Below are positions 46,815 through 61,617 of a DNA stretch of 64,000 bases, one piece after another (the first letter of the stretch is position 1; each line of letters starts with the position of its first letter). The position numbers and the translations under genes were made by a program. The stretch lies in the NCBI GenBank assembly GCA_963800555.1, contig CAWDBH010000006.1, positions 5,851-69,850 of the forward strand, in the 5' to 3' direction. Origin of the DNA: an uncultured Candidatus Micrarchaeota archaeon. GTDB lineage: Archaea > Micrarchaeota > Micrarchaeia > Anstonellales > Bilamarchaeaceae. A model generated the notes under the pieces. The model was given only the letters and a program-made list of their open reading frames with translations. It had not been told where the DNA came from and searched no databases.

Positions 46815-46865
46815 TCAATCCGGGGGAAGCCCAACCATTTTATTCCTTGATTGTCTATATCCCGC

Positions 46866-47762
46866 ATGCGCATCCCATGCGGCTCCATCTCCATAGGCCT
46901 TGACAGCCCAGATGGCGATTTTTCTTTCTTATCGCATGCGCATTCCGATCATACTGGCGGGCTCAAGAGGAAGAGGTCCCTTCTTTCCAGCCAGGCCACG
47001 ATCGACCTCGCCGGGATAGGCGCGGAAGCGATCGGAGTCGATGGAGCGAAACTCATCGATGCGGGGCACATACTCGGCGCGAAGCAGCTCCAGGTGGATT
47101 CGGACGGCAGGCGCGTCGTATATACCGGAGACATCTCGCTCCGGCAGAACATCTTCGGCATGAAGGCCGAGATTCCTTCCTGCGATCATCTCATCATGGA
47201 AGCGACATATGGCGACCCGTCTTACGTTTTCCCTGCGCTCGAGGATGTATATTCACAGGTATCCGGATTCGTGAAAGAGAACAACAGCAGGAATATCATC
47301 ATAGGCGCGTACGAGCTCGGCAAATCGCAAGAGCTCGTGCGGCTGCTCAACGAGAGCGGGATAGCTCCGATAGTGACTGAAAAGACGGATGATTTCTGCA
47401 CCGTCTACGAGAAGCACGGTATCAAGCTGGACCGGCTCGTCGTCGGGAGCGAAGAGGCCGAAGAGGCGATGTCCCGCGCCTTCGCGGCCATCGTTCCTAT
47501 GTGGAAGGCGAAGAGGTATTTCGCGAAAAGATTGGCGGACGCGTTCGAGCGTCCGACCGTGTGCGCGGTCGCGACCGGGTGGGCTCTGCACTACCGCTTC
47601 AACACGGACGCCGCTTTCCCGCTCAGCGACCATGCGGATTTCAACGAGCTCGTGCATTACGTCGAGCAGAGCGGCGCGAAAAGCGTGGAATTCTTCTGCG
47701 GCGACGGAAAAAAGGTCATGGACGTGGCGCGTTCGAAAAGTGGAGCAATTTTAAATAGTTGA
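46866..47762 (+). CDS. Metallo-beta-lactamase/beta-CASP nuclease (SNM1-like)
   Basis: SHAHSDH, AGHILG, YTGD, EATYG, LGKSQEL, LSDHADF. Confidence 0.88.
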   Translation: MRIPCGSISIGLDSPDGDFSFLSHAHSDHTGGLKRKRSLLSSQATIDLAGIGAEAIGVDGAKLIDAGHILGAKQLQVDSDGRRVVYTGDISLRQNIFGMKAEIPSCDHLIMEATYGDPSYVFPALEDVYSQVSGFVKENNSRNIIIGAYELGKSQELVRLLNESGIAPIVTEKTDDFCTVYEKHGIKLDRLVVGSEEAEEAMSRAFAAIVPMWKAKRYFAKRLADAFERPTVCAVATGWALHYRFNTDAAFPLSDHADFNELVHYVEQSGAKSVEFFCGDGKKVMDVARSKSGAILNS

Positions 47763-47821
47763 CCACTTCATTATCTTCAGACTTGCTAGGCACAGCTAAC
47801 AAGCGAGTTTTAGGATCATGT

Positions 47822-47893
47822 GGCCATGATGGCGTAATGGTAGCGTGAGAGGCTGTGGCCCTCTAGGCCCGTGTTCGATTCACGGTCATGGCC
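47822..47893 (+). tRNA. tRNA-His(GUG) with encoded G-1
   Basis: GCCATGA/TCATGGC acceptor, AGAGG-CTGTGGC-CCTCT anticodon arm, CCGTG-TTCGATT-CACGG T arm, C discriminator, followed by a T tract. Confidence 0.95.
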
Positions 47894-48040
47894 CTTTTTT
47901 AATACTTGCTGCAACATGTTGCAGGTCTTTCTTAAGTGGTTCCCGTTTTCGGTTATCTGTTTCAAGAGATGATTATCGCAAAGATCGCAAAATCGGCTTG
48001 TTTTTGCGTTTTTCTTCCCCATTTGGTTCCTAGTCTTGTT

Positions 48041-48991
48041 TCAGCTTGCTTTCTTCATCTTTTTGTAATCGTCAATCATCTGTTTAATCAGAAATTCGAC
48101 AAACGGCCTGAAATCGCCGAAATGGGCCTTCTCCTGAGTGTCGAAGTATTCATCCCGCTTGTCATAGGGGATATCAACAAACGGATACCCATTAGCTTGG
48201 AGGATAAAGTTCATCAAAAGGCGGGCCATCCTTCCATTCCCGTCAGCGAATGGGTGTATCGTGACCAGTCTGGCATGGAACTTAGCCGCGAGCTCCAACG
48301 GGTGCACACTGCCTTCATTGGCGGAGTACCACTTCAATAGCTGTGCCATGAGATTCGGCACCGTCTTCCAGTTGGGGAACTCATATTTACTGGTCCTGAT
48401 GAATACATTGACGTTCCTCCATGCCCCTCCATGCTCTTCATACCCTGGAATGGCCTTGAGCAGCATCAAGTGCAGCCTAAGGACCATTTTTTCATCGATA
48501 TCCGCCTTCGTTTCCAGATATCTGTCGTATAGCGCAAGGCAATCCTTCATGTTCAGGACTTCGAGCTCGTCCCTGCCAGCTTCATAAGTCTTGCGCAGTT
48601 TCAGTATCTTTTTCGTCTGATCAAGCGTGATCCTGCTTCCTTCTATGGCGTTTGTGTTGGTGATGAACTGAGCTCGCTGCGTTTCCAGCCACCCGGCGCG
48701 GCTGGCTCTGCCCATCCCCTCAAGAAGACGCGCATGGGCATTCTTTATCCGCTCCAGCCTGAGCGCTGTATCCTTGTCTATGAACTCCGTATCCGGCCTG
48801 ATGATTTCCTTCAGGATGTAAGCAGATACCTTCTGATCCAGCTTATTGCGCAGCGTTTTTGCTTGTTTTGAAGTAGGTTTTTTGGAGCCGACGTAGAGGT
48901 AAATCTTTTTCCATTTGTTCTCTCCGATGCGGATGGTTTTCTCCAAGTAGAAGTATGGTTTGCCCTTCACTTTCCGTTGCGTTATCTCCAT
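48041..48991 (-). CDS. Fic family protein with N-terminal basic beta domain
   Basis: HPFADGNGRMAR; TNAIEG autoinhibitory motif. Confidence 0.93.
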   Translation of the reverse strand: MEITQRKVKGKPYFYLEKTIRIGENKWKKIYLYVGSKKPTSKQAKTLRNKLDQKVSAYILKEIIRPDTEFIDKDTALRLERIKNAHARLLEGMGRASRAGWLETQRAQFITNTNAIEGSRITLDQTKKILKLRKTYEAGRDELEVLNMKDCLALYDRYLETKADIDEKMVLRLHLMLLKAIPGYEEHGGAWRNVNVFIRTSKYEFPNWKTVPNLMAQLLKWYSANEGSVHPLELAAKFHARLVTIHPFADGNGRMARLLMNFILQANGYPFVDIPYDKRDEYFDTQEKAHFGDFRPFVEFLIKQMIDDYKKMKKAS

Positions 48992-48993
48992 GG

Positions 48994-49142
48994 GGTTATA
49001 ACCACGCTAATATTTATAAAATGTGGTTATAACTTTGTAACCACCCAATATCATAGAATTTGTGGTCATAACTATTTATGGCCCGCTGATTTCTATTAAT
49101 CCAAGAAAATAATGTGGCTACAAGAATTCAAATCGTAGTCAC
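48994..49142. promoter_or_regulatory. Cluster of GTGG(T/C)(T/C)A(T/C)A motifs around the fic TATA box
   Basis: GGTTATAACCAC 48994, GTGGTTATAAC 49023, GTAACCAC 49037, GTGGTCATAAC 49062, GTGGCTACA 49114, GTAGTCAC 49135. Confidence 0.6.
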
Positions 49143-49176
49143 ATGTGACCCGGGTTATCTCCAGGTTTCAAGATTA

Positions 49177-49959
49177 TTATCTTAAGCGCCAAGATTGTTT
49201 GGCGTGCCTTTTCGTCTTCAGCGCTATCGCGGTCATCTCTAATCTATCAGTATCCAGTATCGCGATCCCATTCGCGAATGTGCCATTTGCGACACACGGG
49301 CAGGATATCCAGTCATTGCAGGTGATTTTTGCACTGACCCCAAATCTGATATTTCTGACCTTTTTATTGTCGAAAATCCGTAATCCTTCGACATGGTCAT
49401 GGCCGGATATGCCGAATCCGCATCTGTTTTTCATCTGGAATCCGATTTGCGGCATCGCGCCTTTCGGGTCGATGATGTCCTGGTCACGGCAGCCGGTAAT
49501 GTCCGGGTAGGCGTAATGTGAGATAAGGACTGGTATTCCGTCAAATCTTTCCACAGTGTATTCAGGAAGCCCTCTCAAAAACCGGACGTCTTCCTTGCTG
49601 ACCACTGCCGGAAGGTCATTCTCATAAGAATAGACACCCAGCTTCTTAGCCAATGCCGCCCGTCTGAGAGGTTCCATTCTATAGTAATCCATTGGATAAT
49701 GGATTCCGCCAACATGCGCGGGCAGCTTCCCGATCGCAGCCAAGTCGTGATTCCCAGCCACTGCGATATCGCAATGCTCTTTCACCAGCTGAACGCATCC
49801 ATGCGCGTCCCTGCTTTTGAGAAAACCGAAAAAAGGGACGCTATATCCGATGATATCTCCAAGGCAGACTATCTTGTCGCAACAGGATTCAAGGATCCCG
49901 ATGGCCTGTTTCAATCGAATCTCATCCTCATGGATGTCCGAGATGAATCCGATTTTCAT
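49177..49959 (-). CDS. Calcineurin-like metallophosphoesterase
   Basis: ISDIH, LGDIIGY, GNHD, GHDH. Confidence 0.9.
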   Translation of the reverse strand: MKIGFISDIHEDEIRLKQAIGILESCCDKIVCLGDIIGYSVPFFGFLKSRDAHGCVQLVKEHCDIAVAGNHDLAAIGKLPAHVGGIHYPMDYYRMEPLRRAALAKKLGVYSYENDLPAVVSKEDVRFLRGLPEYTVERFDGIPVLISHYAYPDITGCRDQDIIDPKGAMPQIGFQMKNRCGFGISGHDHVEGLRIFDNKKVRNIRFGVSAKITCNDWISCPCVANGTFANGIAILDTDRLEMTAIALKTKRHAKQSWRLR

Positions 49960-49986
49960 ATTGCTTCCCGTAGAGGAGTACTTCTA

Positions 49987-50090
49987 AACATTTAAGTTTC
50001 TTCCCTGCAATATATTGTAAGAAAACGCATGATGTTGTGCGTCTGCAACGTGAATCGAACTCGGGGATGGAACCTCGGTCATGGCCCTTT
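49987..50090 (+). repeat. att-like repeat copy 1 ending in the tRNA-His 3' end
   Basis: TCCCTGYAATAT..TTG...TGATGT..TGCRACGTGAATCGAAC...CCTCGGTCATGGCCCTTT. Confidence 0.8.
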
Positions 50091-50185
50091 ATTTTTTATG
50101 CAATATTGTCATTAAAAGTAAAGAAATATATACTTTTGATGCATAATAGCACTATTTATAAATCCTTTTCATCACTATATAATGT

Positions 50186-51415
50186 ATGAAAACTAAATGG
50201 GACTGCCTGTTCACATTATTCGAGCTGAAAGAAGCACGCCTCGCGGACATCTCCGAAAAACTCAAAACAAATCCGTCTTCAGTCAGGCAACGCCTGGTCG
50301 GATTTCTGAAGGGCGGGATCATACTTCAGGAAAAATCCACATATTCGCCCAACAGGAACAATCCCGACACGCTCTACATCTTCAACATAATGAAATTCTG
50401 CAAAAATCGCGGCATAAACTACAACCTTTTCCTTAACAGGGAATTCGCTGATGTCTTGAAGGTGGGTTTGAGCAAAGACGAAGCATCCCTCTCTGATTTC
50501 AAGGCATTGAATTATAGGACGGCCAGAAAATACTTGACCTACCTCTCAAGGATAAACATGCTCTTCGTGGTTTCCAAAAAACCGCTTAGGGTGAAATTGA
50601 TCTCCGATCCTATTTTCGATGACGTCCTGGCCCTCTTCAAGATCAAAAAAGAGGCTGCGCAACCGGTCCAAACAGCGATATCTGGAGATAATTACAAGGA
50701 GATCGAAAAACTGCTGGCCAATCTGAATGAGCTGAAAAAGAACATCAATTTCGCGGATATCGATGAAGAGCAGAAGATCGAATTCACTTCAGCATCCACC
50801 CAGCTGGAAGGTAATACGTTCACTCTTGAAGAATCGAAGGAGCTGCTCCTGCACGATATAGTTCCCCACGACAAGAAACTGAAAGAGGCCAACGAGGTCA
50901 AGAATTACTATGCGGCAGTCAACCATATGCTGAACCGGTTGGACCAGCCGATGTCAATAGATTTCATAATCGATTTGCACAGGATCGTGATTTTCAATCT
51001 CGGCGTGAAAGAAGGCGTCAGGAACGTCGCTGTTTCCATAAAAGGGAACCCGTTCTACAAAGTCTCACAGTTCCAGGAGATATTCCCGAAGCTGGATGCA
51101 TTGTGCAAAAAAATCAATGATTTCAACGCGAAGAAGAGGAAAACCAAAGAGGTCGTCGAGTTCGCGACATTCGTCCATAACGAATTCCAGCACATCCATC
51201 CTTTCGAAGACGGGAACAGCCGCGTCACCAGGTTGCTATGGAACTACGTCCTTATGCAGAACGGATTGCCCCTCATCAATATCTATTCGAATACGCGGCA
51301 AGAATACCTGTCGCTTACCAAATTGGCCAGGGAAAGGGATGACGCGAAGCTGAACTCGTTCTTCGTGAGGATCATCAAGGATAACCTGTACAAACTGGCT
51401 AGAGCGCCTCAATGA
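50186..51415 (+). CDS. Fic family protein with N-terminal wHTH
   Basis: LADISEKL.TNPSSV HTH; STQLEGN; HPFEDGNSRVTR. Confidence 0.9.
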   Translation: MKTKWDCLFTLFELKEARLADISEKLKTNPSSVRQRLVGFLKGGIILQEKSTYSPNRNNPDTLYIFNIMKFCKNRGINYNLFLNREFADVLKVGLSKDEASLSDFKALNYRTARKYLTYLSRINMLFVVSKKPLRVKLISDPIFDDVLALFKIKKEAAQPVQTAISGDNYKEIEKLLANLNELKKNINFADIDEEQKIEFTSASTQLEGNTFTLEESKELLLHDIVPHDKKLKEANEVKNYYAAVNHMLNRLDQPMSIDFIIDLHRIVIFNLGVKEGVRNVAVSIKGNPFYKVSQFQEIFPKLDALCKKINDFNAKKRKTKEVVEFATFVHNEFQHIHPFEDGNSRVTRLLWNYVLMQNGLPLINIYSNTRQEYLSLTKLARERDDAKLNSFFVRIIKDNLYKLARAPQ

Positions 51416-51470
51416 AAGTATGACCGCGTTTTGGCTGAGGGTCTGTGGTTATTGACTTTTCAAAAAAATT

Positions 51471-51607
51471 AACATTAAAAATTCTCCCTGTAATATCTTG
51501 CCTGTAGATGCTTGATGTCGCATGGTTGCGACGTGAATCGAACCGTGGGAACGGACCTCGTTAAAGGAATCGTTTGTCTTTCTTTAGGCCTCGGTCATGG
51601 CCCTTTT
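51471..51607 (+). repeat. att-like repeat copy 2 ending in the tRNA-His 3' end
   Basis: Colinear with 49987-50090 plus a 28-bp insert flanked by CCTCG. Confidence 0.8.
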
Positions 51608-51635
51608 TATCAAATATCTTGGTCGTTGCGCAAAT

Positions 51636-52211
51636 TCAAACCATTATCGAGCCACGGAACCCCCTGGCGGAATAGTAAGAATCCGCGCCATTGTGATACA
51701 CGAAAACAATGCCGTAGCGGCGATCGCAAAAGATGGCCCCCCCGAGCTTCCTGATATCGGAAGGCGTTTTCACCCAGCTCGACGTCTTCGTATCGAAATT
51801 CCCGAGTTTCTGCAACTCTCGATACTGTTCTTCCGATAATATCTCGATGCCCATGGCAGCTGCCATATCGATCGCGTTATTTTTCGGTTTATTCTCTTTT
51901 CTCGACTCTAACGCTTCACGGTCGTAGCAAAAGCTTCTGCGGTCAATGGGGCTTTCCGCTGAGCAATCGTAAAAAGCGTATCCGCCCGTCTTCTTATCCT
52001 GGCCGACAACATCCGGTTCGCCGCCGGTTCTTTCCATCTCGTTGAGCGACCATAATTTTTCAGCATTAGCATCCAGCCTTGCTTGCACTTTGACCCATTC
52101 AAGGCCTTTATGGCGGCCCATGTTTTTCTCAAAGCGGGCTTTCAATACTTTGAGAATCTCTTCACGCTGTTCTGGTGTCAATCCCTTTTTTGCTCTGTCT
52201 TTTTGCGGCAT
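51636..52211 (-). CDS. DUF4256 family protein
   Basis: LKARFEKNMGRH, SLNEMERTGGEPDVV, FDTKTSSW, YHNGADSYYSARGFRG. Confidence 0.85.
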   Translation of the reverse strand: MPQKDRAKKGLTPEQREEILKVLKARFEKNMGRHKGLEWVKVQARLDANAEKLWSLNEMERTGGEPDVVGQDKKTGGYAFYDCSAESPIDRRSFCYDREALESRKENKPKNNAIDMAAAMGIEILSEEQYRELQKLGNFDTKTSSWVKTPSDIRKLGGAIFCDRRYGIVFVYHNGADSYYSARGFRGSIMV

Positions 52212-52253
52212 GATCTCCCCTAACATCTAACCACGCTTGCAGATTTTATAAAA

Positions 52254-53165
52254 TTATCTGCGTAGAATAGCAATCTTATCCTGCTTTTGATCCCGGCGTT
52301 TCTTCACGTAGTCTTCGTACTGCCGGACATAGGTGCTGAACAGATATTCGACGAATGATTTCGGTCTCTTCGTCGCATCGACTTTCCTAAGGACCAGATA
52401 ATACAGCAGTTTCTCGTCATTGAAGATATTGAGTAAGGGATACCCTCTCTTCAACAGGACCAAATTCATCAGGAGCCTCGACATCCTGCCATTCCCATCC
52501 CTGAAAGGATGTATCCTCACGAATTTTAGGTGGGCGAGCACGCCAAGCTCAAACGGATGGATGGTGCCTTCCGATTCCTTGAACCAGGCAAAAAATCTTT
52601 TCATGAGGGTTGGCACTTCGTTGTGAGGAGGGCATATGTAGCTGCCGACCCTGACGTCGACGTCACGGTAGCGCCCAGCCCCATCCAACACGCCGTCCAT
52701 TTGGATCTTATGCAGCTTCAGCACCAAGCTTTCATCGATCGATCCAGAATAGCCGAAAAGAAAATCGATGCATCTCTTCATGTTCTTGATTTCACGGATG
52801 TCCTTCTCCTTCGCCTTTATCTTCCCGCCACGAAGAACTGTGTCGGTATCTTCGTATGTGATAGGATTGCCTTCGATCGCATTGGTGTTGAAAATAAAGC
52901 TCACGAAACGCTCACGTTCCTCTTTCCATAGCCTGGAATCCAGATGATGCTTTTTAGAATAGTTTTTTCTGATCGATTCTATCGTTCTGATGTCTTTATC
53001 GCTCAGGATCTGTTTCGGTTTTTCTCTTCTCGGTTTTTCGAACCCGGAGGGCGTTGCGACACCGAGGTATTTTCTATTCTTTTTCCATTTTCCATCCACG
53101 TATTTATTCTCAGTAAGATAATAGTAAGGTCTGCCTTTGATGATTTTCTTTTCTATATAGCTCAT
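52254..53165 (-). CDS. Fic family protein, same architecture as 48041-48991
   Basis: KGRPYYYL...KWKK..KYLG N-terminus; TNAIEGN; HPFRDGNGRMSR. Confidence 0.93.
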   Translation of the reverse strand: MSYIEKKIIKGRPYYYLTENKYVDGKWKKNRKYLGVATPSGFEKPRREKPKQILSDKDIRTIESIRKNYSKKHHLDSRLWKEERERFVSFIFNTNAIEGNPITYEDTDTVLRGGKIKAKEKDIREIKNMKRCIDFLFGYSGSIDESLVLKLHKIQMDGVLDGAGRYRDVDVRVGSYICPPHNEVPTLMKRFFAWFKESEGTIHPFELGVLAHLKFVRIHPFRDGNGRMSRLLMNLVLLKRGYPLLNIFNDEKLLYYLVLRKVDATKRPKSFVEYLFSTYVRQYEDYVKKRRDQKQDKIAILRR

Positions 53166-53294
53166 AATGACAATTAGGGGGCAGGTATTTTTAAACATTT
53201 AGGGGGCAAAGCAAATTTTACATAGATGTAGTCACATTGAATTGGTTCATTCAACTGCCTAGCCCTTTTTTATCCTACACGCTGATTGATTACC

Positions 53295-53918
53295 ATGCGC
53301 GCTTCACCAATAGCTTACGCCCTCGCGTTCATGGCGATCATCATCATAGCCTCATACGTCATGAAGCCGGATATAATCCCCGCGATAGCCAATTCCATCC
53401 CGCTATATGTATTAGCAGCGCAGATATGCCTGACCCTCCTCATCATAGCGATTCTTCTGAAACCCAAGTTCCTGGATGCCGCGCTCTCATCCGTATCAAT
53501 AGATAGTCGATCACTCGCCTTCCTGATATCCATGACCGCAATGTGCGGGAGCCTCTTCTACCAGTTCGGCATGCAATACACTCCATGCGAGTTATGCTGG
53601 TTCCAGCGCATCTTCATGTATCCGCTTCCGTTCATCATCGGAGTTTCGCTCATCAGGAAGCGGGATGATGTATTCGAATTCGCGATCCCCCTCTGCGTGG
53701 TCGGGGCGCTGATAGCCTCATACCATTATCTCATCCAAGTATTCTCTGTCTCATCTTTCGCGTGCTCCCCAGACGGGTCGTGCAGCCTGGTCCAATCCAT
53801 GGCTTTCGGTTACATCACGATCCCCCTGATGTCCTTGACCGCATTCATAAGCATCGCAGCATTGCTCTACCTGGATGCCCTGAGTGAAAAGCGAGCCCTG
53901 AAAGATTCACGGCCATGA
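53295..53918 (+). CDS. dsbB: Disulfide bond formation protein DsbB/BdbC
   Basis: PCELCWFQRIFMYP, second Cys pair CSPDGSC, FGYITIP. Confidence 0.9.
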   Translation: MRASPIAYALAFMAIIIIASYVMKPDIIPAIANSIPLYVLAAQICLTLLIIAILLKPKFLDAALSSVSIDSRSLAFLISMTAMCGSLFYQFGMQYTPCELCWFQRIFMYPLPFIIGVSLIRKRDDVFEFAIPLCVVGALIASYHYLIQVFSVSSFACSPDGSCSLVQSMAFGYITIPLMSLTAFISIAALLYLDALSEKRALKDSRP

Positions 53919-61095: not shown

Positions 61096-61236
61096 GCGGG
61101 TTATGATAGGCAATAATTATTGCTGGTTATGTTCCACAATATAATAGAACTTCATGATGCCTAAGTGCGGATTGATTCCGTCCATTCCAATTCTGTTTTT
61201 GGAAACTCTATTAAACGTACTTCCAGATTGATTATC

Positions 61237-61617
61237 ATGCTGAAGTACCTCTCAAGAGATCAAATTATCGTTATTCACGACCGGATAATAGAATCTTTCA
61301 GCAAGGAAAAAGGGGACATGAGTCTCGGAAACCTTGAGGCAACGTTGGAAAGAGTTGAAGGGTATCAAGGAGAGGATAAAAACGCGTTATTCTGGAAGGC
61401 CGCCATTCTCCTAGAAAGGATTGTTCTTGGCCATCCATTTATAGACGGCAATAAGAGAACCGCCTACGAAGTGTCTAAGATTTTTCTTCAGGCAAATAAG
61501 TTCACATTGAAAGCCGAAGAAGATGAAGTAATCAATTTGCTCGTCGGAATCGCAAAATCCAAGAAAAACAGATATTCTATCAAAGCATGGCTTGAGGAGC
61601 ATTCCAAGAAGACTTAA
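61237..61617 (+). CDS. doc: Doc family toxin
   Basis: YLS...I..IHD.II start; HPFIDGNKRTA. Confidence 0.9.
   Translation: MLKYLSRDQIIVIHDRIIESFSKEKGDMSLGNLEATLERVEGYQGEDKNALFWKAAILLERIVLGHPFIDGNKRTAYEVSKIFLQANKFTLKAEEDEVINLLVGIAKSKKNRYSIKAWLEEHSKKT

Follow-up and report, generated by a model that had tools for sequence, protein, structure and literature searches.

A tRNA-His-anchored array of Fic cassettes, probably a stack of integrase-less modules, in a Candidatus Micrarchaeota archaeon

Layout of the tRNA-His locus

In the genome of an uncultured Candidatus Micrarchaeota archaeon of the family Bilamarchaeaceae (assembly GCA_963800555.1; 1,461,579 bp in 22 contigs, 86% complete; labelled G000 among the genomes compared here), the tRNA-His gene is followed by a compact array of genes for Fic-domain proteins, separated by copies of the tRNA 3′ end. 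The array lies in a stretch of 64,000 nucleotides of contig CAWDBH010000006.1 (positions 5,851 to 69,850), which we call the window and whose first letter is position 1 of the coordinates given for the locus. An initial annotation, made from the sequence without database searches, had described the array as serially captured mini-cassettes.

The tRNA-His (GTG) gene (47823-47894, + strand), the integration target, was called with ARAGORN, which detects many tRNAs of this assembly only when introns are allowed. It is the sole tRNA-His detected in the assembly, the only tRNA found in the window by ARAGORN, and the single Rfam match at E ≤ 1 between 47000 and 54000 (tRNA, 60.8 bits, E 1.1e-11); its G-1 is encoded at 47822. 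Upstream lies a + strand gene for a 303-aa protein of metallo-beta-lactamase fold (46851-47762; Pfam Lactamase_B_2 below cut-off), which served as the anchor of the locus in relatives. The last 12 bases of the tRNA, CGGTCATGGCCC, are followed by TTTTTT, and this attL core with its T tract (47883-47900, + strand) spans the end of the T stem, the 3′ strand of the acceptor, and the discriminator. As initially annotated, exact copies of CGGTCATGGCCC are present at 47883, 50076, and 51592, and a T-rich run follows each of them. With up to one mismatch there are 4 copies in the window against 0.43 expected, a number that 0 of 100 shuffles reach; assembly-wide, the exact 12-mer has 3 copies, all at the tRNA-His array, and its reversed control has 0.

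Gene identities were assigned with Pfam. Cassette A holds Fic1 (316 aa, 48041-48991, − strand; Fic E 6.7e-24, PADLOC SoFic E 1.5e-28) and, as a passenger, a metallophosphoesterase (260 aa, 49177-49959, − strand; Metallophos_2 E 9.7e-11). Cassette B holds Fic2 (409 aa, 50186-51415, + strand; Fic E 2e-14), cassette C a DUF4256 protein (196 aa, 51636-52226, − strand; DUF4256 E 9.9e-91), and cassette D Fic3 (314 aa as the longest open reading frame [ORF], 52254-53198, − strand; Fic E 1.1e-23), whose probable start Met is at 53165. A DsbB-family gene (53286-53918, + strand; DsbB E 3.1e-12) forms the right chromosomal flank. These matches bear out the Fic, metallophosphoesterase, and DUF4256 assignments of the initial annotation, but the winged helix-turn-helix that it placed in Fic2 appears only as a sub-threshold MarR match at the N terminus (E 0.004, 17.5 bits versus a cut-off of 24.6). 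Four of the five array genes are on the − strand, opposite to the direction of the array, and one is on the + strand. TATA-like boxes are found in the sequence upstream of the metallophosphoesterase, Fic2, and Fic3 genes. GC content is 0.43 to 0.48 inside 47.9 to 53.3 kb, compared with ~0.55 in the flanks.

Cassettes A and B are bounded by exact cores. Module A (47895-50087) comprises Fic1, the metallophosphoesterase gene, the arm of a repeat designated R2, and core copy 2, an exact 12-mer that together with its T-rich run (50076-50093, + strand) marks the A/B boundary. Module B (50088-51603) comprises Fic2, the arm of a second repeat, R3, and the double core of the B/C boundary (51559-51603, + strand), in which a decayed core (51559-51570) is followed by a 21-nt spacer and the exact core copy 3 (51592-51603). 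Of the three intervals initially annotated, the first two stand as they were drawn. We divide the third into module C (51604 to ~52240), which carries DUF4256 and has lost its distal end with its own core, and module D (~52241 to 53265), which carries Fic3, a decayed arm, and a decayed core, because the relatives G015 and G004 carry these cassettes separately bounded. The outer island end, R4 (53188-53271, + strand), consists of the decayed arm, the decayed core, which ends at 53265 and is a fourth core copy, and a T tract; a repeat search recovers it as a weak tail copy just before the DsbB gene (53249-53272, 18 of 24 bases matching the tRNA end). In G015, the distal part of the Fic3 cassette, up to the core of that cassette, is homologous to R4. 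Read in this way, the 5.4 kb past tRNA-His (47895-53265) would be a stack of four integrase-less modules, the third interval being C and D fused by deletion. A candidate decayed core, TATGGCCC, ends at 49084 between Fic1 and the metallophosphoesterase gene, with 7 matching bases and no T tract.

A 57-nt arm shared with tyrosine-integrase elements

The initial annotation had seen colinear repeats of ~100 and ~135 bp ending in the second and third cores. These repeats, R2 and R3, are real: they are 71% identical over 90 nt (E 1e-5 at genome scale with R3 as the query), and they align with sequences in other genomes of the genus, for example in G016 (81%, E 1e-21) and G021 (78%, E 7e-13). Their conserved part is a 57-nt arm, here called the P-arm, that lies at 49986-50042 in R2 and at 51469-51525 in R3 (both + strand). 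A 57-nt model built from an alignment of 13 copies (model R1) scores 50.8 bits (E 2e-13) on the former and 42.9 bits (E 6.1e-11) on the latter, and a profile trained on 9 copies, all from other genomes, refinds both (E 8.9e-10 and E 4.1e-5). The consensus of 31 distinct copies, ttTAAAtatt-N5-cTGCAATATaTTGcA-nAaAnA-TGCaTGATgTTGcATG, amounts to a TATA-like box followed by two TGCA-N6-TGCA boxes about two helical turns apart.

In the genus, model R1 has 41 matches, including the 13 copies from which it was built, in 22 of 40 genomes. At the level of the order, matches occur in 26 of the 73 genomes that belong to the same family, compared with 1 of 77 from other families. With the profile that leaves out this genome, exactly four places are found here at E ≤ 10, namely, R2, R3, and one place each on contigs C8 (E 1.7e-4) and C5 (E 2.5e-3). 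A scan for the repeat elsewhere, which the initial annotation had suggested, consequently gives two answers, since the 12-mer occurs nowhere else in the assembly and the P-arm occurs at two further places.

All four P-arms of this genome precede a copy of a tRNA 3′ end at a distance of 30 to 45 nt, and the type of tRNA differs by place. On C5, the arm precedes an exact 13-nt copy of the tRNA-Asp tail, and the tRNA-Asp gene itself is 1.7 kb upstream; on C8, the copied tail is that of tRNA-Thr (13 nt, exact), and the tRNA-Thr gene, which adjoins an integrase, is 18 kb away. The spacing is constant, with 99 to 108 nt from the start of the motif to the end of the core in 9 of 9 tRNA-His-type copies. 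In the relative G054, an 8.1-kb element is complete at the tRNA-His site, in the order beta-lactamase-fold gene, tRNA-His, integrase, six cargo genes, P-arm, and tRNA-His tail. Wherever the arm is found, the tail after it matches the upstream tRNA (His, Asp, Thr, and others). Insertion of these elements takes place in the 3′ ends of tRNA genes. Each element brings a replacement 3′ end, so that the tRNA is not disrupted, and the original tail that it displaces comes to lie at the far end of the element, which always has the 57-nt P-arm and a tail copy that ends ~100 nt past the start of the motif. Since a tRNA tail follows every arm and integrase-bearing examples exist, the P-arm is the distal, attR-side arm of tyrosine-integrase elements that insert at tRNA 3′ ends. 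It ends integrase-bearing elements of 8 to 18 kb as well as integrase-less modules of 0.7 to 3 kb. The reading of the repeats as att-type junctions in the initial annotation agrees with this result.

What the arm does is a separate matter, and it could be either an accessory recombination site or a promoter or operator reading across the junction. The conserved TATA-like box, the two phased TGCA-N6-TGCA boxes, the constant motif-to-core spacing, and the T tract after each core could also be taken to mean that the repeats are regulatory or small-RNA modules with promoter, operator boxes, and terminator, encoding, for example, a transcript of ~100 nt with the 3′ end of tRNA-His and an antisense T arm. 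We regard this as highly improbable as an account of the repeats, because the tails match the upstream tRNA and the copies bound integrase-bearing elements, a combination characteristic of att sites; the repeats could have a regulatory function in addition. A small RNA or tRNA-like structure was rejected on its own terms as well. Rfam finds only the tRNA and no other family, the consensus fold of the 9 tRNA-His-type copies has 6 pairs at −1.6 kcal/mol, and R2 and R3 folded as single-stranded DNA on both strands reach −9.4 to −14.8 kcal/mol (z +0.06 to −1.44, no better than shuffles) with no long hairpin.

Between the P-arm of R2 and its core lies an inverted copy of the T arm of tRNA-His (50049-50065, + strand), 17 nt long and 94% complementary to 47868-47884. 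It is kept in the tRNA-His-type copies of G016, G021, and G048. A second inverted T-arm stretch stands at 51533-51547, between the R3 arm motif and the core. Comparable stretches occur in arms for one other type of tRNA (G012 and G043), and the tRNA-Asp and tRNA-Thr arms of this genome have none.

The layout of two cores 21 nt apart, present in R3, is also found after an arm in G048 (contig G048:C25) and on contig G018:C68, and directly after tRNA-His in G010 (locus L034, 2338-2382) and G006 (locus L036, 1140-1184). Such double cores fit an attP with two cores, in which crossover is possible at either. The 21-nt spacers of the G010, G006, and G018 double cores are homologous to one another. 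G010 has an A-type core in the tRNA and a G-type core 21 nt on, before the integrase; in G018, the pair is located at the far end of the element.

On the tRNA side, a perfect palindrome, TGCAACATGTTGCA, lies at 47910-47923, 16 nt past tRNA-His. Its half-sites are the same as those of the arm boxes, and TGCAA-N4-TTGCA occurs nowhere else in the 1.46 Mb of the assembly. Prompted by this palindrome, a conserved box on the near (P′) side was considered and rejected, as a TGCA-N6-TGCA box (up to one mismatch) is found after only 1 of 30 arm-plus-core junctions and after only 1 of 13 tRNAs, compared with 173 of 5,000 random windows.

Integrases are absent from the window and present elsewhere

The window contains no recombinase, in line with the initial annotation; the six matches of the assembly to PF00589 are all on contigs C3, C8, and C18, and there is no match to Resolvase above cut-off. 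A tblastn search with the six integrases of this genome found no integrase fragment in the island, and none is present in any of the four modules. Integrases of the element family, which have ~400 aa with a Phage_integrase domain and a C-terminal zinc ribbon and each adjoin their tRNA, do exist elsewhere in this genome. In relatives, an integrase stands directly after tRNA-His in G018, G054, and G010, and an integrase fragment stands there in G012. The G018 element resembles that of G054 in having the integrase, the P-arm, and the tRNA-His tail but is split over two contigs. The cargo of the 8-kb G054 element includes, besides the integrase, a MarR-like regulator, DUF6036, MacB/FtsX, CARDB, and an ABC ATPase; no primase, helicase, or other replication genes were seen in it.

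Two contigs of this genome carry further stacks. On C3 (21928-31761, locus L099), a tRNA-Leu gene is accompanied by two more tail copies (27445 and 31749, with 1 mismatch each) and two integrases. On C18 (locus L100), two integrases 3.4 kb apart are each preceded by the 18-bp palindrome GATGCCAAATTTGGCATC, and a Fic gene is situated beside one of them.

Cassette content and order among relatives

An orthologue of the left flank gene was recovered from every one of the 41 genomes searched (93% identical in the close relative G004 and 57 to 71% identical in other species of the genus), and tRNA-His directly follows it in most genomes. What comes after the tRNA is hypervariable, in keeping with what the initial annotation had anticipated. 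When the 7 kb downstream of tRNA-His were compared across 25 genomes of the genus, the ORFs with a length of 90 aa or more, 142 in number, fell into 98 clusters, 81 of which are singletons, and a conserved 105-aa flank gene is found at 83, 157, 2430, 3087, 3158, 3482, 4894, and 6102 nt from the tRNA in eight genomes. The cargo includes AbiEi/AbiEii in G045 (loci L142/L111), a short Fic and a serine hydrolase in G048, an AAA/STAND-type ATPase and AIPR behind the integrase in G018 (locus L025), a short-chain dehydrogenase and a glyoxalase-like protein in G021, and TrmB and DUF4256 in G004. Given the AbiE, AAA/STAND, and AIPR genes, the tRNA-His site behaves as a defense island across the genus.

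Modules of 0.7 to 3 kb with arm and core and without integrase are found at tRNA-His in G021, G048, G045, and G018 and at other tRNAs in G012, G043, G047, and G017. The tRNA-Asp of this genome has one as well, with an AAA_14/DUF4143 ATPase as cargo. Of 30 arm loci, 9 have a Fic homologue no more than 1.5 kb away, corresponding to seven distinct genes in seven genomes because some loci share a gene; the whole assembly studied here has 7 Fic matches.

Single cassettes of the array recur in relatives in other arrangements. In G015, Fic3 (87% identical) is first after tRNA-His, followed by an R4-like sequence that ends in a core with 10 of 12 bases, and then by DUF4256, so that the order Fic3-DUF4256 of G015 is reversed in this genome. 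If insertion takes place at the tRNA, the reversed order requires independent acquisitions. The G015 DUF4256 cassette begins with TTATCAAAT, the same sequence as after the R3 core here, and in both G015 and G045 this cassette starts right after a core. In G004, X-DUF4256 is followed by a core with 11 of 12 bases and then by TTTTTTATCCTA, the downstream flank that both genomes have in common and that stands after R4 here; the DsbB gene (77% identical in G004) is directly past the last core there. Fic2 is first in G003 and G011, and G024 has a Fic2 homologue between two tail copies of a different tRNA. Homology between the cassettes of relatives breaks at the core.

The degree of identity tells the cassettes from their surroundings. 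Compared with the distant G015, four flank genes are 52 to 62% identical in protein and 67 to 69% in DNA, and the Fic3 cassette is 87% identical in protein and 83.5% in DNA, including 87% over 71 non-coding nt; DUF4256 is 79.5% identical in protein and 81.8% in DNA. Compared with the close G004, the four flank genes are 90 to 97% identical in protein and 85.5 to 87.4% in DNA, and DUF4256 is 82.5% identical in protein and 85.2% in DNA; the Fic3 cassette was not found in G004. The cassettes are about equally similar (82 to 85% in DNA) to the close and the distant relative, whereas the flanks are 87% versus 68% identical, and the similarity of the cassettes is therefore independent of host distance. 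A contig from a pond metagenome offers a further hint: it is the same as the window from 47736 to 47901, and its next 99 bases are unlike, a departure that falls right after the core and T tract, although this is a single contig of low depth.

Fic2 has homologues at 18 loci in Micrarchaeota assemblies. Among 17 loci evaluable upstream, a tRNA-His 3′ end is found within 200 nt in 7 and at 540 nt in one, and an arm with the tail of another tRNA is found in one (G024). In L152, L154, L155, L157, L158, L159, and L161, the Fic2 homologue comes first after the 3′ end of tRNA-His, in the same orientation and at 100 to 190 nt, and occupies the spot held by the integrase in full elements. Downstream of Fic2, L166 has a lone match with 2 mismatches and no T run, and L164, the G024 locus, has the tail of another tRNA. 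The idea that Fic2 is a two-ended cassette everywhere was discarded, as G024 is the only one of 16 loci checked downstream that has a second tail, and that tail is of another tRNA. The metallophosphoesterase, a rare accessory gene, was likewise discarded as a recurrent cassette, since only 1 of the 98 other genomes of the family has it (E ≤ 1e-20), with no arm or tRNA nearby.

Origin of the array

The four modules are best explained as derivatives of a single family of tyrosine-integrase elements found in Candidatus Micrarchaeota. How they came to be stacked can be read in two ways. We consider it probable, if well short of certain, that the array arose by serial site-specific insertion and exchange of integrase-less cassettes, with the integrase supplied in trans. 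The modules keep their cis sites and encode no recombinase, a combination that points to movement by an integrase in trans. Each new insertion at tRNA-His would push the older modules outward, leaving the newer units nearest the tRNA, and the outermost junction, R4, and the junction between DUF4256 and Fic3 would have decayed later. The integrase of a full-length sibling, such as those after tRNA-His in G054 and G018, would excise the modules, reinsert them, and exchange them between species, with the arm functioning in recombination or regulation. The initial annotation had proposed serial capture by a trans-acting recombinase. Its view of serial capture is supported by single cassettes that recur in other orders and genomes, with breaks at the tRNA copy; its view of the recombinase finds a plausible source in the siblings, with neither a circle nor a deletion junction seen.

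Several observations weigh against such a history. Part of the array is clearly fossil, with R4 retaining 6 of 12 core bases, and the gap between DUF4256 and Fic3 lacks ~150 nt, including a core, compared with G015 and G004. No motif is conserved on the near (P′) side of the modules (30 arm-plus-core junctions and 13 tRNAs). At 16 other Fic2 loci, no tRNA-His-type tail with a T run is present within 1.5 kb downstream, so that in many genomes Fic2 may no longer be, or may never have been, a two-ended cassette. The six integrases of this genome are 43 to 53% identical to two tRNA-His-site integrases of relatives, which are themselves only 57% identical to each other; with such low identity, no cognate helper was found in this 86%-complete assembly. 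Finally, public reads (Logan contigs of four runs, depth ~2 to 6, in which uncovered parts carry no weight) contain no excision product or joints over the stretch covered.

Some of these points would be expected if full elements had integrated in tandem at tRNA-His and each had then lost its integrase and most of its cargo, so that the modules are immobile and the differences between species arose by homologous recombination at arms and cores or in the flanks. The decayed R4 and DUF4256/Fic3 junctions, the integrase fragment right after tRNA-His in G012, the lack of junction reads in low-depth contigs, and the lack of a close tRNA-His-type integrase in this assembly suit this alternative, and both tandem integration and loss of the integrase after integration are described for archaeal elements in the available text of a review of archaeal tyrosine recombinases (PMC8371274). 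We nevertheless think it unlikely. None of the four modules retains an integrase remnant, intact arm-and-core modules of 0.7 to 3 kb without integrase recur in at least 8 genomes, and the R2 and R3 cores are still 12/12. Moreover, the same single-gene cassettes stand in opposite order here and in G015 with breakpoints at the core, and the DNA identity of the cassettes is 82 to 85% whatever the host distance. The initial annotation had named identical gene content across relatives and remnants of one large decayed element as findings that would speak against its proposal; neither holds, as relatives differ in gene content and the array does not represent a single large element in decay.

Fic proteins as cargo

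The catalytic motif of Fic proteins is HxFx(D/E)GNGRxxR, and class II Fic proteins have an inhibitory motif, (S/T)xxxE(G/N), in the same chain, N-terminal to the Fic core. Fic1 has TNAIEG upstream of the catalytic HPFADGNGR (HPFADGNGRMAR), and Fic3 has TNAIEG and the catalytic HPFRDGNGR (HPFRDGNGRMSR). Fic2 has STQLEG and HPFEDGNSR and deviates with HPFEDGNSRVTR, in which GNS replaces GNG. By the motif definitions of Engel and colleagues, we assign Fic1 to Fic3 to class II, in which the inhibitory helix is part of the Fic protein itself, and not to the toxins that are paired with a separate antitoxin. The initial annotation had called them AMPylase toxins; as the proteins carry their own inhibitory motif, this label is unproven.

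All three proteins match the SoFic and PDC-S04 profiles of PADLOC with E values of 1e-25 to 1e-30 and over most of the SoFic profile. SoFic (PADLOC PDLC03963), an anti-phage defense that consists of a single Fic gene, is reported, in the available text of PMC12249575, to act in abortive infection by AMPylation. Fic1 and Fic3 share the canonical HPFxDGNGR with it; Fic2, with its GNS and an extra N-terminal domain, differs, and the likeness is by a profile that any class II Fic may match. A defense role of Fic1 to Fic3 is plausible, and, with cargo that is mostly class II Fic AMPylases of SoFic type, the locus probably acts as a small, exchangeable defense island.

Repeated words resembling GTGGTTATAAC occur upstream of Fic1 (48994-49072) and downstream of Fic2 (51440-51452; also in locus L168), and CTACA...TGTAG inverted repeats occur near several Fic genes. 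Both may be operators or terminators of the Fic cassettes. A fourth Fic-domain ORF in the window (150 aa, 61165-61617, + strand; Pfam Fic E 6.4e-12) is outside the array, 8 kb downstream.

Relation to known mobile systems

The array shares with integrons the arrangement of small cassettes, an order that differs between relatives, and a recombinase that is not in the cassettes. We give very little credence, less than to any other reading considered here, to the possibility that it is a true integron or an integrase-less attC cluster (CALIN), even though its cassettes of one or two genes between repeats, with no adjacent integrase, have that appearance, and integrons are reported in Archaea in the available text of 10.1101/2022.02.06.479319. 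The repeats are copies of tRNA tails after a linear conserved arm and are not imperfect-palindrome attC hairpins, 4 of 5 genes are opposite to the array direction, and the recombinases of the family are ~400-aa tRNA-site integrases with a C-terminal zinc ribbon, each beside its tRNA. There is no IntI or attI, the cassettes are neither co-oriented nor promoterless but have their own TATA-like boxes, and the array, with its tRNA-derived sites, begins at a tRNA gene. The term integron-like in the initial annotation is apt only as an analogy.

The array is best likened to stacking of cis-mobilizable elements (CIMEs) or of tycheposons. CIMEs are att-bounded elements without integrase that are moved by a helper; they derive from bacterial conjugative elements, as in the accretion-mobilization of streptococcal integrative and conjugative elements, and their mobilization has been demonstrated experimentally. 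Like CIMEs, the units described here are bounded by attL and attR, have no recombination genes, and stand in tandem with or beside autonomous relatives at the same site, from which a helper integrase is presumed to come; the autonomous relative with the same att site and arm in the same taxon is the G054 element (G018 likewise). Unlike CIMEs, these units are known from sequence alone.

Tycheposons of Prochlorococcus are described, in the available text of 10.1101/2020.12.28.424599, as stacking with partial tRNAs between elements and leaving remnants in islands. The array resembles them in that newcomers would push older elements into the island, in its degenerate remnants and partial tRNAs, and in the small, streamlined host genomes. 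Tycheposons, on the other hand, occur in bacteria, and their definition includes integrases and replication modules of their own, whereas the archaeal units are smaller, have no integrase, and share an arm. For genomic islands at tRNA genes, a regenerated tRNA and a displaced 3′ fragment at the far end are reported in the available text on Islander (PMC4383910). The array has the intact tRNA, the far-end 3′ direct repeat, stacking at one tRNA, variable content, and atypical GC in common with such islands. It differs from them in that its units are mostly 0.7 to 2.2 kb, with one or two genes and no integrase, share the 57-nt arm, recur separately in other orders and genomes, and have a DPANN host.

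A limited open-access search by title or abstract retrieved no account of tRNA-site integrative elements in Micrarchaeota or DPANN, and neither DPANN nor Micrarchaeota is mentioned in the available text of the 2021 review of archaeal tyrosine recombinases. Four features appear to be new: the host group, the 57-nt arm that the units share, the very small units of one gene with their permutation, and the double-core variant. DPANN archaea have very small genomes, and little has been written on how they gain genes. Here, one motif suffices to recognize an entire element family, which is present in 26 of 73 sampled genomes of a single Micrarchaeota family and extends from integrase carriers of 18 kb down to single-gene units of 0.7 kb. 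tRNA-His is a hot spot for Fic, AbiE, and AIPR-type genes, and the array illustrates how these archaea collect and swap defense-type genes. If the small units do move in trans, Archaea would have a counterpart to the stacking of CIMEs or tycheposons, one that shows a modularity like that of integrons, and the units would provide a simple system for the cis requirements of a tRNA-site integrase.

It is tempting, though only as a tentative suggestion that goes further than the history favored above, to regard the locus as a tRNA-anchored cassette platform that has converged on integron function. Sibling integrases would then routinely excise, reorder, and pass one-gene units between species; the arm would license recombination and possibly act as a promoter into the next gene, be it an integrase or Fic2; and elements with two cores 21 nt apart could undergo crossover at either.

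One other cluster of tRNA tails was found in this genome. On contig C16 (167-1604), six exact 13-nt tails of an intron-containing tRNA-Glu follow one another at a regular spacing of 285 nt, in a tandem repeat at the start of the contig.

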